Both the position numbers and the translations under genes were made by a program. A stretch of 64,000 nt of DNA, from contig HF993109.1 of NCBI GenBank assembly GCA_000433475.1, forward strand, positions 133,712 to 197,711, in the 5' to 3' direction. This stretch comes from Mycoplasma sp. CAG:956 (GTDB lineage: Bacteria > Bacillota_I > Bacilli_A > RF39 > UBA660). Numbering within the stretch: position 1 is the first letter of the stretch; the number at the start of each line of letters is the position of its first letter. Positions 2-57,855 of this stretch are shown here, piece after piece. Under the pieces are notes generated by a model. That model was not told where the DNA came from and ran no database searches. It saw only the letters and a program-made list of their open reading frames with translations.

Positions 2-853
2 TCATATAAAAGTGATGGTACTTTAGATGAAATGTATGAAAGAATATCAATGCTAGATGACGGTGAGAAAAAGGCCAAAGCCTTCTCTAAATATGAGCAA
101 TTATGTCGCAGTGTTGAACAAAGTCAAGGCATTGAAAAAATACTTGGTGATAATTTAAGTCAAGACGGTAAGTATGTTGTTTTCTTACCCGTTGGTCGCA
201 AAAAAGATGGTACCTATTATAATAGTGAAGATGGTAGTAAAATAAGTAGACAACAGGCTGTTTTAATAATGGAAGATTATACTATTTTAATTAGACAATA
301 TTTATATTCCAATGAGTATATGAAAATTCATGGTGATAAGTTATTATCTATTTATGAAAAGATTACTAAAAAACAAGAGTTATCTAAATATGTTGTTTTC
401 TTACCAGTTAGACGTAAAAAAGATGGAAGTTATTATAATAGTGAAGATGGAAGTAAAGTAAGCAAACAACAGGCTGTTTTAATAATGGAAGATTATACTA
501 TTTTAATTAGACAATATTTATATTCTAATGAGTATATGAAGATACATGGTGATAAGTTATTATCTATTTATAATAAAATCATTGCGAAACAAGAACTATC
601 TAGTGAAGATAAAGACTTCTTAAATAAAGAACAAGATAACATTATGTTACTAGATATGGTTAAAATTAAACATAAACCAGCCGTCTTAAATACCTTCAAT
701 AGTACTATAGTAAGTGTGATTGCTAGACACCAAGATTGGGAAAAATTAGATAAAAAAACTCTAAAGATAAGAATAGAAGCCAAGACTTCTGATATGGTTG
801 ATACAAACTCGCTTCTAAGTTACTATAGTAATAGTAAAAATGTTATCTACTGA
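2..853 (+). CDS. 5'-partial N-terminal part of a large tandem-repeat protein, terminated 4 codons after a frame-shifting 247-bp duplication (continues as ORF 840..4355 if one repeat copy is removed)
   Basis: Reading frame is open from window start; contains a 2x74-aa in-frame repeat; last 82 aa are re-encoded in another frame at start of next ORF. Confidence 0.5.
   Translation, partial: SYKSDGTLDEMYERISMLDDGEKKAKAFSKYEQLCRSVEQSQGIEKILGDNLSQDGKYVVFLPVGRKKDGTYYNSEDGSKISRQQAVLIMEDYTILIRQYLYSNEYMKIHGDKLLSIYEKITKKQELSKYVVFLPVRRKKDGSYYNSEDGSKVSKQQAVLIMEDYTILIRQYLYSNEYMKIHGDKLLSIYNKIIAKQELSSEDKDFLNKEQDNIMLLDMVKIKHKPAVLNTFNSTIVSVIARHQDWEKLDKKTLKIRIEAKTSDMVDTNSLLSYYSNSKNVIY
165..608 (+). repeat. 2 x 222-bp in-frame tandem repeat (74-aa unit KYVVFLPV.RKKDG.YYNSEDGSK.S.QQAVLIMEDYTILIRQYLYSNEYMKIHGDKLLSIY)
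   Basis: Direct comparison of nt 165-386 with 387-608; >90 percent identical. Confidence 0.8.
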
Positions 854-1088
854 AGATAAAGATTTCTTAAACAAAGAACAAGATAATATTATGTTACTAG
901 ATATGGTTAAAATTAAACATAAACCTGCCGTCTTAAATACATTCAACAGTACCATAGTAAGTGTGATTGCTAGACACCAAGATTGGGAAAAACTGGATAA
1001 AAAAACTCTAAAGATAAGAATGGAAGCCAAGACTTCCAATATGGTTGATACAAACTCGCTTCTAAGTTACTATAGTAATAGTAAAAAT
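602..1088 (+). repeat. 2 x 247-bp tandem duplication (unit length not divisible by 3) spanning the ORF1/ORF2 junction
   Basis: nt 605-841 and 852-1088 encode the same 80 aa (SEDKDFLNKEQDN...LLSYYSNSKN) in two different frames; ~93 percent nt identity; copy offset 247 nt. Confidence 0.85.
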
Positions 1089-4000
1089 AAATATGAATTA
1101 GCCGAATTTAATAAAGAAACTAATGGTAAACCTAAGTTGTTATTTGTTATGGATAAATTAAACGAAGGAGCCCATTTAAAAGGAGTAAAGGGTATTGTCT
1201 GGTTACGTCCATTAAGTGTTGATTCAAGAATACTATTCTATCAACAGTTAGGTAGATGTATTCATTCTTATCCTGATGGTCATATATTTACCGAAGAAGA
1301 ACGCCCAATAGTAATGGATTTAGTTAATAATATAAATACCGTTAACTTAAAAAGAAATCAATCTCCAATAAATGATTTAGAAGATTTGAAAACTATTATA
1401 GCTTGGATAAATGATAATGGTGGTAAACTTCCTAATAAGAATAGTAATATTTTAGAAGAAAAGAATTATGGTTTAAAATTAGATGTAATTTTATATCGCT
1501 ATATTAAATATTTTAATAATCAAGAAGAATTAAATAGCGTAAAAAATAAAAAAGTAATAGAGGAAATCTTAAGATTAGGTTCCCTAATTGACTTATGGAA
1601 TATCAAAATAGACGAACCGACAAGACAAAGAAAAGAAAAAGAATCAGAAAGAGATGAAGAAAAATTTTTACAAGGATTTTTACAAGTCGAAAGTTCATTC
1701 CGTGATTTTGTTGATTCAAAAGAAGAAATAGATGAGTTGGCATCGCCTGAGTCTACTTTCGATAAGATATTTAATTATTTGACTATTTTAAAAAATCAAG
1801 GGGTTGACATAAATAGTATTAGTAAGTGTGATAAATTGAAGGTAATTAAAACTGATGGTAATTATTTTCTTCAAATAATAAAAAATAAAAGAAAAAAAGG
1901 AAATGGTAAAACAGTTATTATAAATGAAGAAGAATATAAGGAACCGAGCTTAATTTGGATAGGAAGCTATGTCTATGCCTTTAGACAAGGAAAAAATAAT
2001 AAGGATTCAAAAAGTCCAGACTTAGAGGCTGACCAAATTAGTAGATTAAAGACTTTGAATTTCATTTTTGATTGGGAAGTAGATCCTATATTGAATCCAA
2101 GAAGTTTTGAAGATTATATCTTACTCTTAAAAGAGATGCAAAATTCTAAAGATAAGACTGGATATGATATAAACAATATTAAATTTTTAGAAGTAGTAAG
2201 AATATCAAAAATAAATGGTGAGTATGAGTTTGAATATTTTGCTAATAGAGAAGAAGCAAGAAAAAAATATGGCGAAGATGAAGAAATAATTGGAATAGGA
2301 CGCATTATTAATTGCTTTAAAAGAGGAAAAAATATAAATGAAAAAGATTTAACTGCTGAACAGATAAACGAGTTAAGAAATACTGGTTTAATGGTTGTAA
2401 CTGAAAAAGAAAGAGACCATATAATGATGCCCAAAAATTTTGATGATTATGTTAAAGTTTTACAGGCTTTGCAAAATGCTAAAGATAAGACAGGTTGTGA
2501 TATAAATAATATTAAATTTTTAGAGGTAGTAAGAATAATCAAAATAAATGATGAGTATGAGTTTGAATATTTTGCTAATAGAGAAGAAGCAAGAAAAAAA
2601 CATGGTGAAGATGTAGAAATAATTGGGGTAGGCGATGTTATTTATTGGTTCAAAAAAGGAAAAAGCCGTAGTGGAAAAGATTTAACTGTTGAACAGATAA
2701 ATTGGTTAAGAGATATTGGCTTGATGGTTGTAACTGAAAAAGAAAGAGACCCTATAATGAAACCCCAAAATTTTGAAGATTATGTCTTACTCTTAAAAGA
2801 GATGCAAAATTCCAAAGATAAGATTGACCGTGATATAAATGATATTAATAAGAGAAAAGTAGTAAGAATAACCAAAATAAACGATGGGTATGAATTTGAA
2901 TATTTTGCTAATAAAGAAGAAGCAAGAAAAAAATATGGCGAAGACGAAGAAATAATTGGAATAGGAGTAGTTATTAATTATTTTAAAAGAGGAAAAAGCA
3001 GTAGTGGTCAAAAAGATTTAACTACTGAACAGATAAAGCAGTTAAGAGATATTGGCTTGATGGTTGTAACTGAAAAAGAAAGAGATTCTATAATGAAGCC
3101 AAAATATTTTGAAGATTATGTCTTACTTTTAAAAGAAATGCAAAATACCAAAGATAAGACAAGTCGTGATATAAATAGTATTAAATTTTCAGAAGTAGTG
3201 AAAATAACAAAAATAAATGATGATTATGAATTTGAATATTTTGCTAATAGAGAAGAAGCCAGAAAAAAATATGGTAACGATGTAGAAATAATTGGAATAG
3301 GCCTAATTATTTATTGCTTTAAAAGAGGAAAAAGCAGTAGTGGTAAAAAAGATTTAACTGTTGAGCAGATAAAGCAGTTAAGAGATACTGGCTTGATGGT
3401 TGTAACAGAAAACGAAAGAGACCCTCTAATAGAGCCTAAAAGTTTTGATGACTACCTTCTGCTTTTAAAAGAAATGAAAAAGTTCAGAGATAAGACAGGT
3501 CGTGATATAAATGATTTTAAACCAAAAGAAGTAGTGAAAATAACAAAAATAAATGATGAGTATGAGTTTGAATATTTTGCTAATAGTGAAGAAGCAAGAA
3601 AAAAATATGGTGAAGATGTAGAAATAATTGGAATAGGCCTAATTATTTATTGGCTTAAAAAAGGAAAACTTAGCAATCGCGGAAGAGATTTAACTGTTGA
3701 GCAGATAGAAGGGTTAAGAGATATTGGTCTAAGGGTTGTAACCGAAAAAGAAAGAGACACTATAATGGAGCCTAAAAGTTTTGAAGATTATGTTGAACTT
3801 TTAAAAGAATTACAAGAAAATAAAATTGACATCAATGTAATTAAAGTCACAGATAAAATAAGAATTATAAAAAATGATATCGGTTATGATTTTCAAATTG
3901 TTCATAAAAGCAAAGTAATGGTAAATGGTAAAACGACAATTGCTAATAAAGAAGCATATTTTCAGAATGATTTAATGGCGATAGGGATAAAAATTAATCA

Positions 4001-4355
4001 CTTAAGGAAAGGCAAATATTCTGATAAAACATACCTAACCATAGACCAAATGAAAATATTATTAAGCATAGGCTTTAAATTTAATAAAGGAATAGAAGAT
4101 AAAATATATAAACAAGAAATATGTAAGAATCATAATATTGATTTAAAAATAAATGATAAAATAATTGAAAGAATATCAAAAATAGAATTAATAAGTAAGA
4201 TTAACTTTTTAGAAGCAAGTAATTTAGAACTAGTAGATAATGCCGGTAAACTAATAGATATATTTAGTATGAGTAGTATTGATATTCAAGATAACTATGG
4301 TATATCTTTAGAGTCTATAATAAATACTTATGGAAAAGGAGAAACGAGAAAATGA
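840..4355 (+). CDS. Giant HA-like tandem-repeat protein (1171 aa), no signal peptide, conserved family C-terminal module
   Basis: ATG start; ~7 tandem ~112-aa modules (..P.SFEDY..LLKEMQN.KDKTG.DIN.IKF.EVV.I.KIN.EYEFEYFANREEARKKYGEDEEIIGIG.II..FKRGK....KDLT.EQI..LR..GLMVVTEKERD); second half of module resembles HA domain; C-terminus ...ISKIELISKINFL...GKLIDIFSMSSIDI..NYGISLESIINTYG shared with three neighbours. Confidence 0.75.
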   Translation: MLSTEDKDFLNKEQDNIMLLDMVKIKHKPAVLNTFNSTIVSVIARHQDWEKLDKKTLKIRMEAKTSNMVDTNSLLSYYSNSKNKYELAEFNKETNGKPKLLFVMDKLNEGAHLKGVKGIVWLRPLSVDSRILFYQQLGRCIHSYPDGHIFTEEERPIVMDLVNNINTVNLKRNQSPINDLEDLKTIIAWINDNGGKLPNKNSNILEEKNYGLKLDVILYRYIKYFNNQEELNSVKNKKVIEEILRLGSLIDLWNIKIDEPTRQRKEKESERDEEKFLQGFLQVESSFRDFVDSKEEIDELASPESTFDKIFNYLTILKNQGVDINSISKCDKLKVIKTDGNYFLQIIKNKRKKGNGKTVIINEEEYKEPSLIWIGSYVYAFRQGKNNKDSKSPDLEADQISRLKTLNFIFDWEVDPILNPRSFEDYILLLKEMQNSKDKTGYDINNIKFLEVVRISKINGEYEFEYFANREEARKKYGEDEEIIGIGRIINCFKRGKNINEKDLTAEQINELRNTGLMVVTEKERDHIMMPKNFDDYVKVLQALQNAKDKTGCDINNIKFLEVVRIIKINDEYEFEYFANREEARKKHGEDVEIIGVGDVIYWFKKGKSRSGKDLTVEQINWLRDIGLMVVTEKERDPIMKPQNFEDYVLLLKEMQNSKDKIDRDINDINKRKVVRITKINDGYEFEYFANKEEARKKYGEDEEIIGIGVVINYFKRGKSSSGQKDLTTEQIKQLRDIGLMVVTEKERDSIMKPKYFEDYVLLLKEMQNTKDKTSRDINSIKFSEVVKITKINDDYEFEYFANREEARKKYGNDVEIIGIGLIIYCFKRGKSSSGKKDLTVEQIKQLRDTGLMVVTENERDPLIEPKSFDDYLLLLKEMKKFRDKTGRDINDFKPKEVVKITKINDEYEFEYFANSEEARKKYGEDVEIIGIGLIIYWLKKGKLSNRGRDLTVEQIEGLRDIGLRVVTEKERDTIMEPKSFEDYVELLKELQENKIDINVIKVTDKIRIIKNDIGYDFQIVHKSKVMVNGKTTIANKEAYFQNDLMAIGIKINHLRKGKYSDKTYLTIDQMKILLSIGFKFNKGIEDKIYKQEICKNHNIDLKINDKIIERISKIELISKINFLEASNLELVDNAGKLIDIFSMSSIDIQDNYGISLESIINTYGKGETRK
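1750..4100 (+). repeat. Array of ~7 tandem 333-339-bp (111-113-aa) coding repeats; five central copies (approx 2088-3771) near-identical, flanking copies degenerate
   Basis: Repeat starts at ~2088, 2421, 2754, 3090, 3426, 3772 read directly from sequence. Confidence 0.85.
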
Positions 4356-4672
4356 TATTTGATAAATACTTAAATGATACTTATTTAGATATCTTATATA
4401 GTAATTATAATTTAGATTATTTAAAATCAATTGATCCTAATAACTTTGTTGAAATATATAACTTACTTAAAAATAAAGGCTTCTATTTTATAGAAGATAT
4501 TATAATTAATTATATAGATATTTTTGAGTTAGATAGTTATTACTTAAATAAAGTTTTAACTTACTTAGAAAGTAAAATGGGTAAAGATTATATTAAAAGA
4601 ATTGGTCTTAATATGACTATTTTAGATAAAATAATCGATACTACAATAAATCTAGAAATGAAAGAAGACTAG
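4352..4672 (+). CDS. Small hypothetical protein (106 aa) translationally coupled (ATGA overlap) to the giant repeat gene
   Basis: ATG overlaps TGA stop of upstream gene; GGAG ~10 nt upstream; no recognisable motif. Confidence 0.45.
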   Translation: MIFDKYLNDTYLDILYSNYNLDYLKSIDPNNFVEIYNLLKNKGFYFIEDIIINYIDIFELDSYYLNKVLTYLESKMGKDYIKRIGLNMTILDKIIDTTINLEMKED

Positions 4673-4939
4673 CAAGTAACTAAACTGTTAAAGAAATTTA
4701 GCAGTTTTTTGCAAATATCAGTCACATGAAGAATATTTAAAAAAATTGTAAAAAGATCAAATTTAATCGTTGACGTGTTATGATAACAATAGGCATTAGA
4801 ACAAAAAAATATAATGTAATAGTGTTTTTGAAGAAAAATTAAATAAAACTTTGATGTGTAGAAGGTCAAAAGAACCATTACAAAGGAATGCTTAATTTAG
4901 ATGTGCATTTTGTATTTAGGTTACTTGTATAATGTAGTT

Positions 4940-5180
4940 AAGATATTTCTTAACTATATTTTTATATGTATACCTTGCAAACTTCATATTATAAATAACA
5001 TAATAACTTACTGATACTATATCGTCATAAAACTAAAAATTGTATTAAAATTGGTATTTGGCTTTCTAAACAACGTCACTTATTTTATCAAAATAAATTA
5101 ACCCCTAATAAAATAATATCTTTAAAAAACATTGGCATGGTTTAGAATATTAAAACCTATAAAGAAATATCTAGATATCT
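4940..5180 (+). pseudogene. Decayed HA-domain repeat fragment
   Basis: Translation ...HNNLLILYRHKTKNCIKIGIWLSKQRHLFYQNKLTPNKIISLKNIGMV* matches HA consensus (HG.L.IP..Y.T.DG..LG.WL..QR..Y....L....I..L..IGMVW) but with in-frame stop (TAG in place of the TGG Trp codon), no start, flanking AT-rich decay. Confidence 0.5.
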
Positions 5181-5378
5181 AAATACCAAAGAAAATTCAT
5201 GCCAACCTATAATAATTGCTAAAAATATTAATGCTTCTATAAAAATTCTAATTCTAAGAGTCTAAATTTTACTAAAAAACATTAAAATAATAAAATTTAC
5301 TATTATTAAATTAATTTTATGCTTCCAATTCTTAAATAATGTGGTATTATAAAACAACCTCAAGAAAGGAAAAAAAAT

Positions 5379-6530
5379 ATGCCTAAAATTAATCAACCAG
5401 CCTCTAAAATCAGAATGTCATTTGATGAATGGTTTCCTGTAGCCCAAAAATATTATCAAGAACATAAAAATCTCTTAGTACCCCTAGATTATGAAACTAA
5501 AGATGGTAAAAAGTTAGGAAAATGGATAGCCAGTAAAAGAAAAGATTATGCTAATAATTTATTATCCTTAGAAAAAATTAAGGCTTTAGATAGTATTGGT
5601 ATGGTTTGGAGTATCAACGAAAAGAAATGGAATGATATGTTTAATCTTTTAATAGAGTACAAAAATATCCATGGTAATTTAGATATATCATCTTCATATG
5701 TAACCTTAAGTTGTGTAACTTTAGGCATTTGGCTAAGAGAACAACAAAATTCCTATCTTAGGGGTACCCTAAAAGAAGAAAGACAAGAAAAGTTAGAAAG
5801 TATTGGCATTATTTGGCAAACCAATGAAACAAAATGGTATGAAATGTATAAATATGCTAAAGAATATCAAAAAGAACATGGCACTTTAATAACTACCAAG
5901 AATTATATTACTCCAAATGGTAAGTCTCTAACTGAATGGTTACAAGCCCAACGTAGTGGCTACCACAAGAAAACATTAAAACCCGAAAGAATAAAACTTC
6001 TTGAAGCCATTGGCATGGTCTGGAGTATAAATCAAAGTTATACTTGGCATGATATGTATTTACTTGCCCAAGAATATCAAAAAGAACATGGCAATCTAAT
6101 TATTCCTAGAAATTATAAAAGTAAAAATGGCTTAAATTTAGGCTACTGGCTTTATAAAGAAAAACTAAAATATCGTCAAGGAAAATTAGCACCAGAAAAA
6201 ATTATTGCCTTAGAACACATTGGTATCGTTTGGACTAACAAAATTAATCATGACATTTCTAAATATTTAAGAAAACTAAAAGAATCTGACAATCCAATTA
6301 TTATCGATGAAAAAATTAATGCGGATATTTTAAATAATATTTCTTTAATCGAATTAGAAAGTAAAATTAAATATATAACCGATATGGGAGCCCTACCAAT
6401 AGATAACACTGGTCGTTTAATAGATATATTTACTATAAGTAATACTGATATGGAAGAAAGATACGGCATATCTTTAGAAGCCATGATTGAATCATTTGAA
6501 GTAAGCAGTGCTAGAAAACTATATTATTAA
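5379..6530 (+). CDS. HA (helicase-associated) domain repeat protein, 5 tandem HA repeats plus family C-terminal module
   Basis: RBS AAAGGA; repeats of W..(F/Y)....Y...H.NLLVP..Y.T.DGK.LG.WI...R..Y....L..E.I..L.SIGMVW; C-term ...NISLIELESKIKYI...G.LIDIFTISNTDMEERYGISLEAMIESF. Confidence 0.75.
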   Translation: MPKINQPASKIRMSFDEWFPVAQKYYQEHKNLLVPLDYETKDGKKLGKWIASKRKDYANNLLSLEKIKALDSIGMVWSINEKKWNDMFNLLIEYKNIHGNLDISSSYVTLSCVTLGIWLREQQNSYLRGTLKEERQEKLESIGIIWQTNETKWYEMYKYAKEYQKEHGTLITTKNYITPNGKSLTEWLQAQRSGYHKKTLKPERIKLLEAIGMVWSINQSYTWHDMYLLAQEYQKEHGNLIIPRNYKSKNGLNLGYWLYKEKLKYRQGKLAPEKIIALEHIGIVWTNKINHDISKYLRKLKESDNPIIIDEKINADILNNISLIELESKIKYITDMGALPIDNTGRLIDIFTISNTDMEERYGISLEAMIESFEVSSARKLYY

Positions 6531-6547
6531 TATAACAATCGAATTAG

Positions 6548-6667
6548 AAAGAAAAACGTAATGATAACATTTTAAAATGCTTATTCCTAGTAGATAAGCA
6601 AGGCAAATTAATAGACATATTCAGTATGTCAAATTATGAAACCAAAGAAAAATACGGTGTTAGATAA
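6548..6667 (+). pseudogene. Remnant of the family C-terminal module (decayed partial duplicate of 6340-6500)
   Basis: Encodes ...LVDKQGKLIDIFSMSNYETKEKYGVR* with no start codon; preceded at 6533-6560 by a near-copy of the ...aatcgaattagaaag... segment found inside the upstream gene. Confidence 0.45.
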
Positions 6668-6734
6668 TATAAGAAAATATTATCTATAATGGCATTAATA
6701 TATAATTTATAAATTAAATAGGAAGTGACAAAAC

Positions 6735-9359
6735 ATGAATGAATTATTTAATATGACTAATTGTTATACAGATACTGACTATTATTATTTTTATCAAGAT
6801 TTAAATAAAGATAATAAGTTTAATTTTTCTGTTTATAATAATCATACTTTAAAAGACTTACTAAAAATAGTAGAAACTAAATATGGTAAAGATACCAGTT
6901 GTCTTTCTCTAAATGTTTTAACCAATGTTAGTTTAATCTATGGCAGTAATGACTTTATAAAAAAATATATTATAGTTAAAATACCAAAAGTAATTTTAAA
7001 ACAAAAAAAGTTTAAGGAAATAGTAAAAAATATTAATTATTATTTTAATGACGATCAAAAACAAATATTATTTAAAATATATCCCAAAGAAAAAATAAAA
7101 CAAGAATATGATCATTTTTTAAATCCTCAAAATTTTCTAGACTATGCTAATATTTTAAAAAAATTACAAGAAGCTGGATACGACTTAAATGACATAAAAT
7201 TTGATAGTAAATTAAAAGTTGAAAAAGTAAATGATAGTTATAAATTTACTATTATTAGAAAAAAATTAAAAAAAGTAGGTCAAGTTTATGTTATAGATAA
7301 TAAAACTGAGTATAATGATCCTAATCTAATTAAAATAGGTCGCAAATTATATTATTATGAAAAGGGTAAGAAGTACCAATTTGAAGAAAGCATAGATTTA
7401 AATGCCGAAGAAATAAAAACACTACGTGATATTGGATTATATGTTATTTCAGAAAAAAATAGAGATCATATTTTATACCCTAAAAATTTTGAAGATTATT
7501 TTAATCTTTTGAAAAAATTACAAGAATCAGGTATTGATATTAATAGCATTATAGCTAGTGATAATTTAAGAATAATAAAATTTAATAACATTTACAAGTT
7601 TGAAGTAATAAAGAAAAATGTCAAAAAAGCTAAAGATGATAGTAATAACACTTTAAATAACCTAGAATCCAATCAAGTAAACATAATAAAAATTGGTAAA
7701 AAAGTTACTGCTTTTAGAAAAGGTAAAAATTCCGTTGCCACCGATAGTGAACCTTTAAGTGATGATAATTTAGAAAATCTGCAAAGCATTGGCTTTAATA
7801 CCCCTTATCTAAAAAGATTAGAAAGAGAAATAAATCCTAAAACTTTTACTGATTATTTTAATCTTTTAAAAAAATTACAAAATTATGGTGTTGATATAAA
7901 TAAAATAACTAGTAATGATAAAGTAAAAGTTATCAAAATAAATAATGATTTTAGCTTTAAAATTATAAAAAGAATAGTAAAAACAGATAAACAAGGTCAA
8001 AAAATCACAATAAATAGCGATGAATATTATAAAGAAGACCTAATACCAATAGGCTATAAAGTAGTGGCCTTTAAAAAAGCCAAACAAGGTCCCGATAAAG
8101 ATAGTCCTTATCTTACCGAAGAAGAAATTAAAAAATTACAAAGTATTGGTTTAGAAGTAATAAAAGAAAGAGATATAATTTTAAATCCTAAAAGTTTCCT
8201 TGATTATATGGCTATTTTAAAAAAACTCCAAGAAGATGGTTACAATCTTAATGATATCTATTTTACCGATAAGTTAAAAATAACTAAAGAATCAAATAAA
8301 TATAAGTTAGAAATTATAAAAGAAGACTCTAAAGAATATAAAATACCAGGTTTAATGACCATCGGTCAAAAACTATATTGTTTTAAAAGAGGAAAATATA
8401 ATAATAGTCCTAGTAGTAGAGATTTAACCCCAGATGAAATAGCTATTTTAAATACCTTAGGTTTTAAATTAGCTATTGAAGAAAAAAAATCCATTGATTA
8501 TATTGAATTATTAAAAAGATTAAAAGAATCTGGTTATGATATAAATAAGATTAAATATTATGATAAAGTAAAAATAACTAAAAATAATCATGAATTTAAA
8601 TTAGAAATTATAAATGAAAATGATCCATTATATAACCAACCAAATTTAATATTAATCGGACCACACGTTTTATCTTTTAAAAAAGGAAAAAAATTTCAAT
8701 ATTCAGGACCAACTGATTTGAGTTCTGATGAAATAACTAGATTACAGAATATCGGTTTAGTAATATTAAATGATCATGTATTGTATCCGCAAAGTTTTAA
8801 TGATTATTTTAATATTTTAAAACTTTTACATGAGTCTGGTTATAATATAATGGATATCAAGACTACCAGTCGCCTTAAAGTAACAAAAGAAAATGGTAAA
8901 TATTTCTTTAAAATTATTAACAAGGAAGATCAAGAATGGCAAAATAAAGATTTAATTTTTATTGGTCGTAAAGTAAAATCTTTTGAAAGTGGTAAAAATT
9001 CTCCTGGTAATCACTCTAGTTATTTAACTGTAGTAGAAATAAATAATCTCCTTAGTATTGGTTTTACTTTTAAAAAGAAAATCGAAGACATTATTTATAA
9101 AAGAGAAATATGTAAAACTTTTAATATCGATATAAAATTAAATCAAGAAATAATAGATAGAATATCTAAATTGGAATTAATAAGTAAAATTAAATATTTA
9201 ATTAAAGAAAAGAATATGCCTATATTAGATAATAATGGTAATTTAGTAGATATTTTTACCATGAGTAGTCTCGATATAGAAGAAAAATATGGCATATCTT
9301 TAGATACTATAATTTCTACTTATGGTTATAAGCAAGTAAAAAAGTTAAATTTAATATAA
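6735..9359 (+). CDS. HA-like tandem-repeat protein (874 aa), ~7 divergent ~110-aa modules, family C-terminal module
   Basis: Modules .NP..F.DY..LLKKLQE.G.D.N.I......K..K.N..Y.F.II.K.......I.....Y.....I.IG.K...F.KGK........L...EI..L..IG; C-term ICKTFNIDIKLNQEIIDRISKLELISKIKYL...NGNLVDIFTMSSLDIEEKYGISLDTIISTYG. Confidence 0.7.
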   Translation: MNELFNMTNCYTDTDYYYFYQDLNKDNKFNFSVYNNHTLKDLLKIVETKYGKDTSCLSLNVLTNVSLIYGSNDFIKKYIIVKIPKVILKQKKFKEIVKNINYYFNDDQKQILFKIYPKEKIKQEYDHFLNPQNFLDYANILKKLQEAGYDLNDIKFDSKLKVEKVNDSYKFTIIRKKLKKVGQVYVIDNKTEYNDPNLIKIGRKLYYYEKGKKYQFEESIDLNAEEIKTLRDIGLYVISEKNRDHILYPKNFEDYFNLLKKLQESGIDINSIIASDNLRIIKFNNIYKFEVIKKNVKKAKDDSNNTLNNLESNQVNIIKIGKKVTAFRKGKNSVATDSEPLSDDNLENLQSIGFNTPYLKRLEREINPKTFTDYFNLLKKLQNYGVDINKITSNDKVKVIKINNDFSFKIIKRIVKTDKQGQKITINSDEYYKEDLIPIGYKVVAFKKAKQGPDKDSPYLTEEEIKKLQSIGLEVIKERDIILNPKSFLDYMAILKKLQEDGYNLNDIYFTDKLKITKESNKYKLEIIKEDSKEYKIPGLMTIGQKLYCFKRGKYNNSPSSRDLTPDEIAILNTLGFKLAIEEKKSIDYIELLKRLKESGYDINKIKYYDKVKITKNNHEFKLEIINENDPLYNQPNLILIGPHVLSFKKGKKFQYSGPTDLSSDEITRLQNIGLVILNDHVLYPQSFNDYFNILKLLHESGYNIMDIKTTSRLKVTKENGKYFFKIINKEDQEWQNKDLIFIGRKVKSFESGKNSPGNHSSYLTVVEINNLLSIGFTFKKKIEDIIYKREICKTFNIDIKLNQEIIDRISKLELISKIKYLIKEKNMPILDNNGNLVDIFTMSSLDIEEKYGISLDTIISTYGYKQVKKLNLI

Positions 9360-9459
9360 AATAAAATACTATTAAGAAAAAACACTTAATAGTATTTTTA
9401 ATATTGCTAAATTTAAAAAAAGTAGTATAGTATAGAAAATTAATTAAAAAGGGGATTTT

Positions 9460-10857
9460 ATGATTAAAAAAAGTATAAGAAAAAATCCAAAGGATAATTT
9501 TGATGAGTGGTTTAAAATAGCAGCATATTATTATAAAAAACATAACAATCTATTAGTGCCCGCTAACTATTTAACCGAGGATGGTAAAAAATTAGGAGAG
9601 TGGATAATTTATATTCGAACTAAATATAATTCTGATGACCAAAAAATAACTAAAGAGCAAAAAGAAATGCTAGATTCTATTGGTATGGTTTGGAACTTAT
9701 ATGATTATAGATGGCAAGAAAGATTTAATCAAGTTAAAAAGTTTTATGATGAATATGGAACCATAGAACTTTTACCAACCTATCAGGGAAAAGAAGGCTT
9801 AAAACTCTTAAACTGGATAAAATTTCAAAGAAATATTTACTATAGTAAAAGTAAGAAACCAAAAGATCTAGAAAAAATTGCTAAATTAGAAAGTATTGGC
9901 GTCATTTGTCATCATAAAGATGAAATGTGGGTTTCCATGTATAACTTAGCTTTCTTATATTATAAGAAAAACAATAATCTATTGATTCCTGCTTGTTATG
10001 AAACTACTCTTGGTAAAAAACTTGGTATCTGGATAAGAAATCAAAGAAAAAGTTATTCTGATGGTAATTTATCTGAAATTAAAATCGCAGCCTTGGAATC
10101 TATTGGCATGGTTTGGCATGTTTATGAAAATAAGTGGAACCTAATGTATAAAGAAGCCTTAACTTATTATCAAAAATATCATACTATCAGTATTTATAAA
10201 GACTATAAACCAACTTATGTAACCAAAGAAGAACTATGTCAGTGGTTAGCAACTCAAAAGATATATTATAAACAACATAAAAATTTAACTCTTGAGCAAT
10301 ATAAGAAACTAAATTTAATTAAAATAGACTTTGACTATCAAGAAGATAATTGGAATTATATGTATAACTTGGCAACTAATTACTATTTAGAAAATGGTCA
10401 TTTACTAATTCCTAGAACCTTTAAATCTGAAGGTAAGAATTTAGGTATTTGGTTAGAATCACAACGTCAACATTACCAAAAACAAAAACTTTCTGAAGCA
10501 AAAATTCTTCTTTTAGAATCTATCGGTATCATTTGGCAACCGAGAAAAAATCTTTCATCTATATATAATTATTTAGATGAAAATTATCCTTTAATTGATA
10601 AACGACTTAACAGGGATGTTTTAAACCGTATTTCCTTACTAGAACTAATTGCTAAAATTAATTATTTAATTTGTTGTAAACATACTTCCTTTATTTATAG
10701 TAATGGGCTTTTAAAAGATATATTTTCTATGAGTAGTATAGCTATCAAAAATGATCCTAACTATGGTATTTCCTTAGAAGAAATAATTAATACCTATGGT
10801 AAAGAATATATTTTAAAATATAATAAAAATATGAAAGGTAAAACTTTAGACTTATAA
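9460..10857 (+). CDS. HA (helicase-associated) domain repeat protein, 6 tandem HA repeats plus family C-terminal module
   Basis: RBS AAAGGGGA; HA repeats (..W...Y......Y.......L.P..Y.T..GKKLG.WI..QR..Y......E.KI..LESIGMVW); C-term LNRISLLELIAKINYL...NGLLKDIFSMSSIAIKNDPNYGISLEEIINTYG. Confidence 0.75.
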   Translation: MIKKSIRKNPKDNFDEWFKIAAYYYKKHNNLLVPANYLTEDGKKLGEWIIYIRTKYNSDDQKITKEQKEMLDSIGMVWNLYDYRWQERFNQVKKFYDEYGTIELLPTYQGKEGLKLLNWIKFQRNIYYSKSKKPKDLEKIAKLESIGVICHHKDEMWVSMYNLAFLYYKKNNNLLIPACYETTLGKKLGIWIRNQRKSYSDGNLSEIKIAALESIGMVWHVYENKWNLMYKEALTYYQKYHTISIYKDYKPTYVTKEELCQWLATQKIYYKQHKNLTLEQYKKLNLIKIDFDYQEDNWNYMYNLATNYYLENGHLLIPRTFKSEGKNLGIWLESQRQHYQKQKLSEAKILLLESIGIIWQPRKNLSSIYNYLDENYPLIDKRLNRDVLNRISLLELIAKINYLICCKHTSFIYSNGLLKDIFSMSSIAIKNDPNYGISLEEIINTYGKEYILKYNKNMKGKTLDL

Positions 10858-10948
10858 GAAGAAAGAGAAAATTTACTAATTTCCCTTGCTTTTTTTTTCT
10901 ATTTATAAGATAATTAAGAAGTATAGATAGTAAGGAGTCGTAAAAAAT

Positions 10949-13561
10949 ATGGAATATGGTATCGATTATATATTAAAATTACCAACTGAAGATATAAAAA
11001 CTTATTTAGAAAGTGCTAGTATAATAGATATCCTAGCCATCTTAGAAAATATCAAAAAACGTAAGGAAATGGATTATGCTTCTTTAAACAAATTAGAAAA
11101 ATTAGAAGAGCAAATTAAAATAAATAAAAATTACCTTACTGATATCGATAAACGTATAAATTTTGCTACTAAAACTAATGCTCCTAAAGTAGAAGTTGAT
11201 TTATTATGGGAAGAATATAGTCGTTATGATGCCATTATCGATGATTTAACTAGTAAAAAAGAACAATTAATTCAAGGATTTAATGATAAAAAACAAGCCA
11301 TTTTTACTTTAGCATGGAATATGATCTTAGAAGCTCCTGTATCTAAATTAGAAGATTACCGAAACAGCCTTATCACATGGCTAAAAAATAGAATAGAAGC
11401 TATTGAAACTAATAAGAGCAACAGGGAAATAACTACCAATACACTTTTAGAAGATAGAAACTTTACTAAAGAAGATCTAACTGTTAAATCAATTGATGCC
11501 GAGATTAAAGAAATGGAATCTCAAGTTCTAAATCATGAACTTATTTTAAATGAAGAAACTATTGGGAAGATTAAATCATTAAGAGCTAAAAAAGAATCAT
11601 TAGAACATGAAACTTTTACTTTTGTTTGCACAGAAAAGATAAAAACGTCTCTAAAAACTATTAGTAATGATATAACTAAATTACAGATGGAATTATCTAA
11701 CATTATTCAAATGGACATTGAATCTTTAAAAGAAATGATTTTAAGTGATTATGCTCAAGGCAAAGAAGAAATAAAATTAGCCAACTACGTTCGTATTTAT
11801 CGCTCTTATTTAGAAAATATTAGTAAAGTACCTCTTACTTTAAAAGCAGCATATCGTAATATTTGCCTAAACTATGCTAATCTTTTAAATTCCATAGAAA
11901 ATCCTAGCTTTGAAGGGGAAACTCTTAATGATTTAGATATTAAATTAAAAGAATTACATAATTATATAAAAACTTTAGAACAATATAAAACTAAAAAAAA
12001 TGATAAAACTACCGAAACTAAGTTCTTATATACTACTGTAAGACAACAAGGCTTATTTGAACTTCCTTTCTCTAAAGATAAATGGTTATCTTATTTTGGT
12101 AAATATTTTGAATCCTTACTTAACGAAATTAAACCATTAGAAGAAAAGAATAAAGAATATATCTCTTTAACAACAGTTAGTCTAAAGAGTAAAAAGATAG
12201 AAGAAGAATTAGACTTATATCGTAAAGACTTAAGAAGTATGTTAGATGAACTATATAACAAAGTTTTATCCATATATTTAAAGAATAATTTATATATTAA
12301 TGTTAATGTTTATGATTATCGTGATACCGAAACATTTACTAAGTACTTAGAATATCAAACTATTAGTATCGATAAAGAAATAGCAAGTGTTAAAACTACT
12401 ATTGAAGGATTAAATAGTAAGAAGAGTAATATCTTAGAATTAATTAATGATACTTATAGTAAGATTGATACTGATATTAAAGCTAAATTAAATAGTATTT
12501 TTAATGGAACTTATGTAAAAGAAGAAGAACAAGAAGAAAAACCTCATCATTTCTTTGCAAGTCCTACTACATTAGAACCTAGTTATAATGATACTTTTGA
12601 TGATACAACTAGTAATTTAGAACCTATAAGTAAGGTAGAAGAAGAACCAGAAGTATCTGAATTTGATTCTTTCTTTGCTACTGATATTCCTTTTAAAGAT
12701 GATGATACAGAAGAAAATAATGAACTACCAGAAGAAGCTCCTACAAGACCTAAACATGAATTAGAACCAGATGAAGTTCCTTTGAAAGAAAAAGAAATCA
12801 AAGATGAACAAAGTAACAATTCTAGCATAACCACCTTTAATCCCGATGATATCTTTGGTAGTACATCAAATACTTTAGATAATGCTTTAGAAGAAGAGCA
12901 AAAACAAGAACCAGTAGTTTCAAAAGAAGAAGATGATACGGTAATTTCTTTTGATAGTGAAGATATAGCATCAACAAAGGCCTCAGAAAAAAAAGAAGAG
13001 GCTAGTGAAGCTAGTGCAGTATCTGATGATATAAACTTTGATGATGCTATATCATCATCTGATAGAGAAGCTTTTAAAGAACTACTTGAACCTCAAAAAG
13101 TGCCAGATTTTAATACCATAATTAATACTCCTGAACCAAGTACTAAAGAAGAAAAAAACAAAATCAAAAAAAGAGGACTTAAAGTAATTAAACAAGAACC
13201 AGTAGTTTCTAAAAAAATGTCAAAGAAAACACCAGAGGTAGTTTCAAAAACAACTGTTAAAACGGATGCTACTGAGATTAAAGAACGAATCGAAAACAGC
13301 CAAAATGATAGACAAAGTAAAAATGTACCACCACTATTTAATCCGGCTAGTGCTAGTGATGTAAAAAGTGAATACAATGATACTAATGCTCCAATTGATT
13401 TAAATGCTTTTCTAAATGGCAACCTTTCAAATCCAACAGAAAAACAAGAAACTAAAGAAGTTGATGATAAAACTAAAAAATTAACTTTAAGTCAAGATGA
13501 TAATATAAATTTGATGGACTTTTTAAACCAAATTGAAAATAACGATGCTAAAGTAGCTTAA
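10949..13561 (+). CDS. Hypothetical 870-aa coiled-coil protein with long acidic Ser/Glu/Pro-rich disordered C-terminal half
   Basis: RBS AAGGAG; heptad-like K/E/L-rich N-terminal 520 aa; C-terminal ~350 aa dominated by E, D, S, P, T. Confidence 0.7.
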   Translation: MEYGIDYILKLPTEDIKTYLESASIIDILAILENIKKRKEMDYASLNKLEKLEEQIKINKNYLTDIDKRINFATKTNAPKVEVDLLWEEYSRYDAIIDDLTSKKEQLIQGFNDKKQAIFTLAWNMILEAPVSKLEDYRNSLITWLKNRIEAIETNKSNREITTNTLLEDRNFTKEDLTVKSIDAEIKEMESQVLNHELILNEETIGKIKSLRAKKESLEHETFTFVCTEKIKTSLKTISNDITKLQMELSNIIQMDIESLKEMILSDYAQGKEEIKLANYVRIYRSYLENISKVPLTLKAAYRNICLNYANLLNSIENPSFEGETLNDLDIKLKELHNYIKTLEQYKTKKNDKTTETKFLYTTVRQQGLFELPFSKDKWLSYFGKYFESLLNEIKPLEEKNKEYISLTTVSLKSKKIEEELDLYRKDLRSMLDELYNKVLSIYLKNNLYINVNVYDYRDTETFTKYLEYQTISIDKEIASVKTTIEGLNSKKSNILELINDTYSKIDTDIKAKLNSIFNGTYVKEEEQEEKPHHFFASPTTLEPSYNDTFDDTTSNLEPISKVEEEPEVSEFDSFFATDIPFKDDDTEENNELPEEAPTRPKHELEPDEVPLKEKEIKDEQSNNSSITTFNPDDIFGSTSNTLDNALEEEQKQEPVVSKEEDDTVISFDSEDIASTKASEKKEEASEASAVSDDINFDDAISSSDREAFKELLEPQKVPDFNTIINTPEPSTKEEKNKIKKRGLKVIKQEPVVSKKMSKKTPEVVSKTTVKTDATEIKERIENSQNDRQSKNVPPLFNPASASDVKSEYNDTNAPIDLNAFLNGNLSNPTEKQETKEVDDKTKKLTLSQDDNINLMDFLNQIENNDAKVA

Positions 13562-13595
13562 GTTTAATAGATAATAGTAAATACATAAAAAAATT

Positions 13596-14069
13596 GGTTC
13601 AATAAAATCTAGTGTGAAGAGAGATGATAAAATTTCATCTCTTTTTATGTGGTAATATGTAGTAAATAATAATAGGAAGGCGAGTATAGATGAAAGATTA
13701 TTATTTGCTAATAGGATTAAATAGTAAGGAGGTTAAAATAATAATGGATTAATAGAAATTACTATTGAGAATAGGAAAAAGAAAGTAAGGTGTCCTGTCT
13801 GTAATAAATTTACAAGTTCAGTACATGATAAATTAAAGCCTATAAGAAGTGTTTATTTAGATAGTTGTGGTTCAACAAGAAACAAAAATATCTCCAACAT
13901 TAAAAATAAGAAATAAATTTTTTACTCGATTATCAAAATTTTAATAATATTAAAAACGTTCAAAAAATAACTAAAAAAATCATATCAAAAAAAATGTAAA
14001 AAAATCCGTAAATTCCTTATGTTATAAGGCATCATGCAGATTTTTACTTCACACTAGATTTTATTGAAC
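13596..14069. mobile_element. MITE-like internally deleted ISL3-family remnant bounded by perfect 24-bp inverted repeats
   Basis: GGTTCAATAAAATCTAGTGTGAAG at 13596-13619 is the exact reverse complement of 14046-14069; interior encodes fragmented ISL3-like transposase N-terminus (MKDYYLLIGLNSKEVKII.. then ..RCPVCNKFTSSVHDKLKPIRSVYL zinc-finger-like) broken by stops. Confidence 0.55.
13617..13648 (+). terminator. Rho-independent terminator hairpin (agagatga-loop-tcatctct + T-run) after 10949..13561
   Basis: 8-bp perfect stem 13620-13627/13635-13642 followed by TTTTT. Confidence 0.5.
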
Positions 14070-14121
14070 CATAATTCTTGCTTATCCTTTATCTTTGTGT
14101 TACCTTAAATTTGGTGATAAT

Positions 14122-14895
14122 ATGCAAATAATTAAATATACTAAAAAAGGTTCTAATAAATATGAATTGACTTTAAAAGATAATACTAAATTACTAGTAT
14201 ATACTGACCTTATTTTAGAATATAACTTATTAATAAGAAAAAATCTTGATCCTAATACTTTAAAGAAAATAAAAAGTGCTAATCTAAAACTAGAATGTTA
14301 TTATAAAACCTTAAAGTATTTAAAAAATACTAAATGTACTAGTGATATAAAAAACTATTTAAAAGATTATCCTTCTAATATAGTTGATTATACTATTAAA
14401 AGATTAACTAAAGAAGGTTATTTAAATGATAATAATTACATTAAATCTTATATAAATACTAAAATAAATTTAAGTAATGATGGTTATTATAAAATATATT
14501 ATTATTTAAAAAATAAAGATTTAGATGAAACTATTATAAAAAATTATCTAAATGATATTGAAGATAATATCTGGTTAGATAAAATAAATAAGATAGTAAA
14601 TACTAAATTAAAAAGTAATACTAAGTATAGTAATAACTTATTAATAAGTAAAATAAAAACTTATCTTAAAACACTTGGATATCAAGATTATCTAATTAAT
14701 ATAGCCTTAGATAATATTAATTTAGATACCTCTAAAGAAGATGAAAAATTAGAAAAAGACTATCTAAAATTATTTAATAAATATAAAAATAAATATGAAA
14801 AAAATAAGTTAAATTATATTTTAATAGGTAAACTATATCAAAAAGGTTATGATTTAGATAAAGCCAAAAGAGTAGTAGAAACTTCCAATTTGTGA
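14122..14895 (+). CDS. recX: Recombination regulator RecX
   Basis: GGTGA RBS then ATG; three-repeat helical pattern with ..YELTLKDNTKL.V..D.I..Y.L.....L........K.A.......YYKTLKYL..T..S..E...YL......I...I.RL...GYLNDN.Y..SYI.......GY.KI...L..K.. typical of RecX family; tool start 14095 is TTG. Confidence 0.6.
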   Translation: MQIIKYTKKGSNKYELTLKDNTKLLVYTDLILEYNLLIRKNLDPNTLKKIKSANLKLECYYKTLKYLKNTKCTSDIKNYLKDYPSNIVDYTIKRLTKEGYLNDNNYIKSYINTKINLSNDGYYKIYYYLKNKDLDETIIKNYLNDIEDNIWLDKINKIVNTKLKSNTKYSNNLLISKIKTYLKTLGYQDYLINIALDNINLDTSKEDEKLEKDYLKLFNKYKNKYEKNKLNYILIGKLYQKGYDLDKAKRVVETSNL

Positions 14896-55972: not shown

Positions 55973-56265
55973 AAATAATTCTCCTTTCTTTATATTTGCT
56001 TTTACTTAGTACGAGCCATCATTAAATAGGGGAGTCTATCTAGATATTTTCTCATAGGCAGAGATAGATACTAATAACCATTTCTGGGATAGACACATCT
56101 ACTAAACTTTGGCACTGCCAATTAAATGCAAGAATAATTTATCATATCCTTAATTATAAGTCAATTAAACTATGAAAATTTGTACAAATTTGTCAGAATA
56201 AATTGTTTTTTTAATGAAAAAATGATATTCTTATATTAGTTATGATAGAGAAGGACAGTGTATGT

Positions 56266-57123
56266 ATGAAAAATAAATTGAAAATAAATTTTAAAGACAA
56301 AAAGACTATTATTATCTCCATATTATTAGGACTTATCTTAATTAGCCTAATAATATTTATTTGTACAAAGGTATTTCATAAAGATAAAGAATTGACTCCA
56401 GATGATCCAACAACAAAAGAATTTGAAAATTATTTAAAAGATGCTATAAAACCTTTTGATGAAGATACTATAAAAGATTTTATTAGTAGTACTGATAATG
56501 TTGCCAACGTTGATGAAATATACTTAGCAACAACTCATTCTGCTGATATAGATAAAGAAGTAAAAATCTTATATACATTAAGTAGAATGTTTTATAACGA
56601 TTCTGATATAGTTCATTATATGTCAGGAGCTAATATGTTTGATGAAGATACTGAACTTGGCAATGTAAAACTATCGATTAAATTCATTAACAAAGCTCTA
56701 GCAGCTAAATTTAATGATACAACCATTGATCCAGATACAACAATTACCGATGGCTTTTTTAGAGGAATAAATGCTGTTATTTGTGATGATACATATTGCA
56801 TAATTCCAATATCTAAAACCCAAGAAACTTCTAATGAATCAGATGGATTGTATGAAAGTGTATTTGAAAACATAACCAAAACTTCAAATGGTTATGAATT
56901 AGTAGGTAAATACTATTATTCTGAATTTAGTATGGATGGAGATATGACTTTAGGTGTTTATAATAATATCTTTAAAGAAAAAACTTTCTGTGAAGTATCG
57001 CTTTGGAATGTTTACTTAACCGATGGCGAAGTACCAGAAGAATGTCAAAAAGATAGTGAATATGATAAAGTTAAATACTATTTCGATAAAAACTATCACT
57101 TTATTAAATCAGAAAATGTGTAA
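56266..57123 (+). CDS. N-terminally membrane-anchored hypothetical protein
   Basis: ATG 56266 after GAAGGA; TM IISILLGLILISLIIFICT; several Cys in extracytoplasmic part. Confidence 0.55.
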   Translation: MKNKLKINFKDKKTIIISILLGLILISLIIFICTKVFHKDKELTPDDPTTKEFENYLKDAIKPFDEDTIKDFISSTDNVANVDEIYLATTHSADIDKEVKILYTLSRMFYNDSDIVHYMSGANMFDEDTELGNVKLSIKFINKALAAKFNDTTIDPDTTITDGFFRGINAVICDDTYCIIPISKTQETSNESDGLYESVFENITKTSNGYELVGKYYYSEFSMDGDMTLGVYNNIFKEKTFCEVSLWNVYLTDGEVPEECQKDSEYDKVKYYFDKNYHFIKSENV

Positions 57124-57138
57124 GAAAGGAGTTAAACT

Positions 57139-57855
57139 ATGAAAAAAAATTACTTTATTTTTGGAATTATTGGCTTACTTGCTTGTGTTAAAGTAAATGC
57201 TGAAGTCTGTCCTTTTGAAACCCAAGTTGCTATTAATAATGATGCTGGTTCTGTAAGTGTTAGTACTTCTCCTTTTGAATATGAATTTACTGATACCGAT
57301 ACAGAGACTGATGAAGAATATGATGGCACTGCCTACACTGGCTTAGTTCACATTTATAATTTAACTAAAAATATATATGCTGTAGCTAGTGATGGTACTA
57401 ATAAAATAACATTAAATTATGATGAGGAAAATCCTAATCAAGTAACATTTTCGACTGGTGGTATGGCATTCTTAAAAGAATATAAGATATCAATATATCC
57501 AACTAATACAAGTTGTGGCAAAACGGCTATAAGAGAACTTAATGTCACAGTTCCTAGATTAAATCGTTATTATTCATATGATTCTTGCAGCGATTATCCT
57601 GATTATTTTTATTGCCAACAATTTCTAAGTGTTGAAGATATATCGGAAGAAGATTTTGTTAACGGACTTGATGAATATGCTAAAAGTAATAAAAAGAAAA
57701 GTGATGAAAATCGCAAAGAAGGAATAATAGATGGAACTAAGGATTTTCTAAAAGATCACTGGTTAATTACTGCAATAATTACAATTGTAATTGTAGGTAG
57801 TATTGGTACATTTATATTCTTTAAAAGAAAAAAGAGAAAGGAGCATATCGTCTAA
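57139..57855 (+). CDS. Secreted protein with signal peptide and C-terminal TM anchor + basic tail
   Basis: RBS AAGGAG; SP MKKNYFIFGIIGLLACVKVNA; C-term ITAIITIVIVGSIGTFIFFKRKKRKEH. Confidence 0.6.
   Translation: MKKNYFIFGIIGLLACVKVNAEVCPFETQVAINNDAGSVSVSTSPFEYEFTDTDTETDEEYDGTAYTGLVHIYNLTKNIYAVASDGTNKITLNYDEENPNQVTFSTGGMAFLKEYKISIYPTNTSCGKTAIRELNVTVPRLNRYYSYDSCSDYPDYFYCQQFLSVEDISEEDFVNGLDEYAKSNKKKSDENRKEGIIDGTKDFLKDHWLITAIITIVIVGSIGTFIFFKRKKRKEHIV

Follow-up and report, generated by a model that had tools for sequence, protein, structure and literature searches.

The 475-bp element at positions 13596–14070 (+) of the window, by which we mean the whole 64-kb (64,000-nt) stretch of DNA analysed here, is very probably a dead, non-autonomous ISL3-family copy that marks the junction of two terminator sites, Z and X, with ~9.7 kb of DNA lost beside recX. 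It carries deletion type A of its family, and its blocks were aligned to the closest full-length copy, L029 452–2027 (1576 bp), which serves as the reference for its decay. Downstream of the element, and outside it, lies a recX-like gene of 257 aa (14122–14895, +) assigned from NCBIfam and Pfam profiles. Its product matches NCBIfam PRK14135 with E=1.7e-35 and 123 bits against a model cut-off of 240 bits, matches three Pfam RecX helix domains weakly and below the gathering score, and has more distant homologues that NCBI names 'RecX family transcriptional regulator'. RecX is a regulator of RecA. The right end of the element (14070) is positioned 51 nt 5′ of the recX ATG (14122).

Boundaries of the element and its full-length relatives

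The element is bounded by a perfect 24-nt terminal inverted repeat. The left arm (IRL), GGTTCAATAAAATCTAGTGTGAAG, occupies 13596–13619 (+) and its exact reverse complement forms the right arm (IRR) at 14047–14070 (−). The perfect 24-bp repeat of the initial annotation therefore stands, while the right arm, placed there at 14046–14069, lies one base further right. The DNA between the arms measures 427 nt. A repeat search returns 25-nt arms (13595–13619 and 14047–14071), and the 25th T/A pair belongs to the flank rather than to the element because the bases there differ in other copies. In the 64-kb window the two arms are the sole matches at up to 3 mismatches, and 100 dinucleotide-preserving shuffles contained none. 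Beyond the window the repeat is not unique, as a search for other copies recovered it in species-representative genomes (19 stretches) and in metagenomes (47 stretches). The 19 genome stretches come from about a dozen gut MAGs labelled as uncultured Bacilli, Tenericutes, Firmicutes or Clostridium, with human, goat and water deer as hosts. Viral contigs scanned for the inverted repeat gave no match, and neither did plasmids searched with the element by distant blastn.

Full-length partners of 1.58–1.66 kb are found in gut MAGs and metagenomes, and six of these copies (L001, L002, L014, L025, L026 and L029) share the ends of the window element. IRL is identical to both ends of the L025 copy, which encodes an intact transposase. 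The L001 and L002 copies, each 1657 bp (2811–4467), have a split transposase, and in L025, L014 and L026 a single ORF encodes a transposase of 437, 434 and 448 aa, respectively. The L025 transposase scores 258.6 bits against NF033550 (ISL3; cut-off 180), 183 bits against PF01610 and 27.7 bits against PF14690, and that of L014 scores 195 bits in the ISL3 model search. Perfect 8-bp target duplications flank the copies in L001 (AATCTTTT), L002 (CAAGTTCC), L014 (CAAAAAGA) and L086 (TTATTTAG). Because partners with identical ends encode intact ISL3 transposases, the ISL3 derivation proposed in the initial annotation is confirmed, and so is its description of a non-autonomous, internally deleted element whose ends are perfect and intact. 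ISL3-family terminal inverted repeats are ~15–39 bp long, a range that includes the 24-nt perfect ends found here and shared with the full-length copies.

The coding remnant of the window copy, repaired to 75 aa, finds no match, to ISL3 models or others, in Pfam and NCBIfam scans, so that the link to ISL3 rests on its homologues and on the full-length DNA copies. Among 62 close homologues of the repaired remnant, each ≤126 aa, many carry PF14690, the ISL3 zinc ribbon. The window remnant keeps the first CxxC only and does not match PF14690 by itself; longer homologues, P0003, P0005 and P0008 among them, do match, as do the full-length proteins. The window copy is also without a DDE domain, which makes it a derivative rather than a functional ISL3 member. 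Plasmid-borne ISL3 transposases provide no close relative of the parent, the nearest, from Ligilactobacillus salivarius, sharing only ~30% identity, and this places the parent on a deep, divergent and unnamed ISL3 branch. The parent IS populates low-GC uncultured gut Bacilli, some of them binned as 'Tenericutes', and combines a length of 1.58–1.66 kb with 24-bp ends, 8-bp duplications, a DDE transposase of 434–448 aa and an internal left-end hairpin. In full-length variants, 1–3 tandem left-end-like repeats (for example GGTTCAATAAAATCTAGTGTGAAG, GAAACAATAAAATCTGGTGTGAAG and GCAATAAAATTTAGTGTGAAG) precede this hairpin, at L001 2811–2925, L014 291–405, L002 2811–2925 and L025 1535–1620, and a single left-end repeat is present in window-type copies and in L029. 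The tandem repeats may be several transposase-binding sites or duplicated ends.

Internal deletions and the transposase remnant

Compared with L029, the retained blocks of the window copy are 97.8%, 99.2%, 98.4% and 93.1% identical. The missing 1082 bp corresponds to positions 291–1372 of the L029 element, the transposase core, and lies between 9-nt direct repeats, GTGGTTCAA, which L029 has on both sides and of which one copy is left in the window at 13867–13875 (+). This loss is in frame and joins codon ~67 to the last 13 codons (..DSCGS to ..TRNKNISNIKNKK*). A second loss, of 19 nt between AAAATAA repeats at 13734|13735, shifts the frame and breaks the residual ORF. As such, the transposase start ORF, MKDYYLLIGLNSKEVKIIMD*, is shortened to 13690–13752 (+), and an out-of-frame remnant at 13737–13916 (+) carries the first zinc-ribbon CxxC fused to the last 13 codons, with a C-terminus (..GSTRNKNISNIKNKK*) that matches that of the L029 transposase. 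Both peptides quoted in the initial annotation are present in two different frames, MKDYYLLIGLNSKEVKII(MD*) as the ORF at 13690–13752 and ..RCPVCNKFTSSVHDKLKPIRSVYL.. in the frame starting at 13620, in agreement with its account of a broken ISL3-like transposase N-terminus whose second part is out of frame.

The 1082 bp were lost first and the 19 nt afterwards. At the same locus, L033 retains the 19 nt and has an intact 81-aa fusion ORF, which keeps 1 of the 2 zinc-ribbon CxxC pairs. The strains with the 19 nt undeleted (L033 3549–3794 and L032 930–1175) thus encode an in-frame fusion of the N-terminus, with its one CxxC, to the last 13 residues. The fusion has no family match, and a regulatory role for it is at most conceivable. 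The window copy has no coding function, and its movement would require a transposase supplied in trans; its 20-codon ORF should not be annotated as a gene.

Other short derivatives of the family have distinct junctions, including type B (287 bp), type C (~370 bp), a 1175-bp form in L015 and solo left-end fragments. These differing junctions indicate that the family consists of copies decaying independently rather than of one amplified unit. The solo fragments, each comprising the left end, the hairpin and the T-run over about 55–80 nt, lie beside genes in L075 (10597–10654), L082 (953–1035), L020 (3415–3494) and L081, and are leftovers of further deletions that spared only the terminator-bearing end.

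Hybrid flanks and the DNA missing beside recX

The two flanks of the window element do not form the 8-bp target duplication that the initial annotation had considered: the left flank reads AAAAAATT (13588–13595) and the right flank ATAATTCT. The comparison with relatives that it had also proposed yields an empty site, which reveals a junction with hybrid flanks rather than a simple insertion. The native terminators are split by this junction and leave orphan halves at 13569–13582 and 14079–14089. On the right, the flank is exactly the loop and 3′ arm of the terminator 5′ of recX (site X), consisting of the loop ATAATTCT followed by the orphan 3′ arm TGCTTATCCTT at 14071–14089 (+), and the window is without the 5′ arm of this hairpin and without the DUF5411 gene. 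Strains with an empty site X, in which RecX is 98% identical and the downstream DNA 98.3% identical to the window, have the intact hairpin at the end of the DUF5411 gene as AAGGATAAGCA-ATAATTCT-TGCTTATCCTT and then a T-rich tail, with an 11–12-bp stem and a folding energy of −15.4 kcal/mol (z=−6.3). Among the fetched loci, site X is empty in 15 (L055–L064 and L068–L072) and occupied by the element in 25. The gene order of the empty-X strains is a type-B copy, a 283-aa gene, a 236-aa gene, a 2405-aa M23-peptidase gene, the DUF5411 gene, the hairpin and recX. In L042, whose RecX is 95% identical, a different, ~790-bp degenerate ISL3 derivative sits in the same recX hairpin loop (1658–2449); it has the ends GGTTCTCGATAATTTAGTGGGGAG and ..CTCACTAGATTATCGAGAGC, flanks that match at 7 of 8 positions (ATAATTAT/ATAATTCT) and a DUF4143 ATPase gene to its left.

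On the left, the flank holds the orphan 5′ arm (13569–13582, +) of the terminator that the 870-aa gene originally had (site Z), and the left end of the element adjoins the boundary between the loop and the 3′ arm of that terminator. The orphan arm pairs with DNA flanking the type-B copy in L007 and L068. The right flank of that copy starts with AAAAAATT, the left-flank 8-mer of the window, and when the window left flank and the L007/L068 right flank are overlapped on these 8 nt, they form a 14-bp stem followed by T8. The intact Z hairpin would read AGATAATAGTAAAT-ACATAAAAAA-ATTTACTATTATTT and T8. The rebuilt hairpin lies 8 nt past the stop codon of the 870-aa gene, and only 0.5% of random joins fold as well. 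The alleles of the two half-sites also co-vary, ATAATAGTAAAT of the window with ATTTACTATTAT of L007 (G..C) and ATAATAATAAAT of L119 with ATTTATTATTAT of L068 (A..T). An intact Z site turned up in none of the strains, the fetched loci contained no empty Z, Y, V or U site, and an exact-protein look-up of the 465-aa neighbour in the window returned the window's own arrangement only.

The Z and X terminators are ~9.7 kb apart in conspecific strains (L068 215–9950), and an element with one flank from each marks a recombination or deletion junction and not a simple insertion. From the pairing of the Z half-sites and the gene order of the empty-X strains, we infer an ancestral order of 870-aa gene, terminator Z, 283-aa gene, 236-aa gene, M23-peptidase gene, DUF5411 gene, terminator X and recX. 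It is very unlikely that the element simply inserted between the 870-aa gene and recX with an 8-bp duplication that has since decayed, an event that would predict a conspecific empty site with ...CATAAAAAAATT-ATAATTCTTGC... contiguous. The adjacency of the two genes could be ancestral, given that an 830-aa homologue lies directly 5′ of recX in L043. However, AAAAAATT and ATAATTCT agree at only 2 of 8 positions while the element blocks are still 93–99% identical to the full-length copy, the left flank pairs precisely, and with compensatory alleles, with DNA 9.7 kb away in conspecifics, and the hairpin that supplies the right flank with its 3′ half has its other half in the end of a DUF5411 gene that is absent here. 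The L043 locus, from a species with RecX 82% identical, has a hairpin and no element between the two genes. Gene order around recX has changed on more than one occasion, in a direction that these loci settle only in part.

The DNA used for comparison is entirely metagenome-assembled, and such assemblies are prone to mis-joins across repeats; the source of the window is probably a metagenome assembly too. An assembly chimera, with two loci joined across the repeated element and flanks that are not truly adjacent, would fit an element that breaks many contigs, and random mis-joins could also yield each of the four flank combinations described below. Such an artefact is nevertheless highly improbable, since no fewer than four further independent assemblies (L033, L065, L066 and L119), made from different samples and by different assemblers, have the Z-left/X-right join, some of their contigs spanning 68–319 kb, and since the empty-X arrangement is consistent across 15 loci. 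Moreover, alleles track the arrangement, as seen for the 19-nt indel and a left-end G/C variant. L067 displays the Z-left junction only.

Two routes to the Z/X junction can be proposed. In the first, RecA-type homologous recombination would occur between directly oriented copies at Z and X; in the second, a transposase-mediated intramolecular attack would drive the Z copy into the X hairpin. Both would delete the intervening genes and leave one copy without a target duplication. Among the strains recovered, none carries a copy at Z together with one at X, and at neither site does any of them hold a copy with a duplication; an ancestor with two copies is thus a reconstruction, and recombination and intramolecular transposition are not separable by these data.

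The type-A deletion junction occurs with left flanks Z and Y and right flanks X and V in all four combinations, which is the pattern expected from crossing-over among copies. It also bears on whether the 475-bp form is an active MITE, amplified in trans at several sites including this one and still mobile. One deletion junction beside four flanks could be read as amplification, the perfect ends are the same as in copies with an intact transposase, and in many samples short-read contigs terminate within the element, 30 nt from its right end, which points to a multi-copy repeat. We nonetheless regard an active MITE as improbable: every type-A copy compared is hybrid-flanked and none has matching flanks, so that no type-A copy shows a target duplication; the set of two left and two right flanks is explicable by crossing-over between copies; the other junctions of types B and C, the 1175-bp form of L015 and the solo left ends speak for local decay rather than amplification; and the 64-kb window contains no transposase gene. 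From the sequences, mobilisation of the deleted form in trans is a possibility only. L032 was considered as an independent insertion of the same form in a higher-GC genome and rejected, as L045 and L075, of the same species, join the same left flank to recX.

Around the junction, four consecutive genes of 383, 874, 465 and 870 aa (5379–13561) share stretches of nucleotide similarity and are a local paralogous family, and repeated 'helicase-associated' HA domains (PF03457) are present in two of their products, the 465-aa protein matching with E=1.5e-68. A conserved non-coding module of 370–590 nt follows each member of a gene family of 470–475 aa (C-terminus ..DPYxLKMQ*), at L007 1–355 and 2461–2906, L045 540–973 and L032 340–835. 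The module seems to contain the 3′ end of the gene once more, in degenerate form, and itself ends in a hairpin, GAAAATTCC..GGGATTTTC, that serves as insertion site Y of the element. Upstream of the 383-aa gene lies a non-coding gap of ~700 nt (4672–5379). L066 and L067, independent contigs of the same locus, begin about 775–795 nt 5′ of this gene, and from these contig starts the gap may hold another repeat or variable segment. Further upstream, a 336-nt tandem repeat of 5.2 copies at 83% identity (2081–3809) lies inside a 1171-aa ORF (840–4355), and two-copy repeats of 216 and 247 nt precede it (169–571 and 597–1088); all three repeats are protein-coding and lie in large genes. At the far end of the window (56242–64000), a paralogous cluster of a 293-aa gene, a 238-aa gene and a very large gene running off the window has 65–71% nucleotide identity to the 283-aa/236-aa/M23 segment that is missing beside recX in this strain.

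Terminator-like hairpin, candidate promoter and target sites

Just inside IRL, at 13620–13647 (+), folding and conservation within the family define a terminator-like hairpin that reads AGAGATGA-TAAAATT-TCATCTCT and then TTTTT. Its energy is −16.6 kcal/mol (z=−5.6), and 0 of 200 shuffles are equally stable; a simple terminator scan does not call it. The hairpin and its T-run follow IRL in every family variant, with the compensatory changes GAGGTGATAA/TTATCACCTC and AGAGGCGA/TCGTCTCT. The placement of the element between a terminator and recX in the initial annotation is consequently to be revised, this hairpin being inside the element and a conserved part of the IS. From general IS biology, we take its most likely role to be the blocking of outside transcription into the transposase gene. 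The hairpin lies 58 nt past the stop codon of the 870-aa gene and, as the sequence pattern suggests, would now follow that gene in place of its lost terminator. An Rfam search of 13000–14600 returned nothing relevant, only a chance-level CRISPR-repeat match (E=0.31).

At the other end, a candidate hybrid promoter faces recX at 14048–14075 (+), with the −35 TTCACA in IRR (14048–14053), a 16-nt spacer and the −10 CATAAT (14070–14075), which spans the last base of the inverted repeat and the flanking ATAAT. This 10/12 match is the best in 13400–14250 and lies 47 nt 5′ of the recX ATG, in a region where, by consensus matching only, the total of promoter-like matches is no higher than in shuffles. 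The stretch from hairpin to recX in the empty site contains a single promoter-like match (9/12), which overlaps the recX start codon. Together, TTCACA in the right end and ATAAT in the flank may serve recX as a hybrid promoter. A circle-junction promoter of right end and left end was also considered and rejected, its spacing being unsuitable as judged by eye. Hybrid promoters of ISL3 elements with phenotypes have been documented, one in E. faecium (folT), where an intergenic insertion bias is also described (PMC13216065), and one of IS1167A in S. pneumoniae (SP_0835as; PMC13142319).

These precedents, the conserved hairpin and T-run behind the 870-aa gene, the promoter match close to recX and the lone match at the start codon in the empty site together speak for a domesticated regulatory cassette, retained for the control that its terminator and outward promoter would exert over the 870-aa gene and recX. 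The arrangement is, however, polymorphic within the species, the recX proteins are 98% identical with and without the element, and the internal remnant is decaying still, all of which makes domestication unlikely. Our preferred reading of a dead copy at the Z/X junction makes the element an ordinary mobile-DNA relic of known ISL3 biology whose local history is well documented.

All 8 reconstructable insertion sites of the family (L001, L002, L014, L086, X and Z from L055/L068, and the cross-locus pairs L083+L096 and L025+L087) are terminator-like hairpins. The element faces either way in them, and its 8-bp duplication is located in the loop, 3′ arm or T-tract. In five cases, the folding energies rank at percentiles of 0.02, 0.09, 0.015, 0.14 and 0.003 of local background windows, which Fisher's method combines to about 7e-5 against this local background. 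Part of this enrichment may be survival bias toward short intergenic regions, which are largely terminators in these genomes. We found no specific report of terminator or stem-loop targeting by ISL3 in the literature searched. Given a terminator of its own at the left end and an outward −35 at the right, an inserted copy would exchange the host terminator for a terminator-plus-promoter cassette. From these sites, and from the second ISL3 derivative in the recX hairpin loop of L042, we put forward only tentatively that this ISL3 lineage might target intrinsic-terminator hairpins, swap in such a cassette and leave decayed copies that act as recombination hubs. If this were true, the hubs would lead strains of uncultured gut Bacilli to gain and lose large clusters of surface-protein and pilin-like genes.

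The analysis describes a divergent and unnamed ISL3 element, common among low-GC gut Bacilli that have been little studied, and it shows at the level of sequence how an IS derivative marks a deletion specific to certain strains, here of ~9.7 kb and including a giant M23-peptidase gene. It also offers a testable idea, that insertion sequences of this lineage seek out terminator hairpins and rewire the genes beside them, recX in this case. Assemblies of these genomes are expected to break at this repeat.

The parent IS is readily compared with the ISL3 family (ISL3, IS1167, IS1165 and IS1251; NF033550, PF01610 and PF14690). Its transposase passes the family models end to end, and it shares 24-bp ends beginning with GG, 8-bp duplications, a length of ~1.6 kb and intergenic sites. 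It differs in the 1–3 tandem left-end-like repeats of its full-length variants, and the window copy differs further in having neither the DDE domain nor a target duplication. Like bacterial MITEs, the window element is short (475 bp) and non-coding, has the perfect ends of an autonomous IS and arose by internal deletion; unlike them, it is without a target duplication, its occurrence beside several flanks is explicable by recombination, and the family comprises several independent deletion derivatives in place of one expanded unit. The promoter match facing recX resembles the published ISL3 hybrid promoters (PMC13216065 and PMC13142319) in combining an IS end with its flank toward a neighbouring gene, and whereas those were established by RNA-seq or 5′-end mapping with phenotypes, the one here is a 10/12 consensus match only. 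The closest parallel to the junction itself is IS-mediated deletion and recombination as described for ISL3 in E. faecium (PMC13216065), where recombination between identical ISL3 copies is discussed as a source of deletions. The two systems have in common hybrid flanks, loss of the DNA between insertion sites and structural variation at the level of strains; in the window, by contrast, the junction is a 475-bp deleted derivative and both ancestral sites are terminator hairpins.
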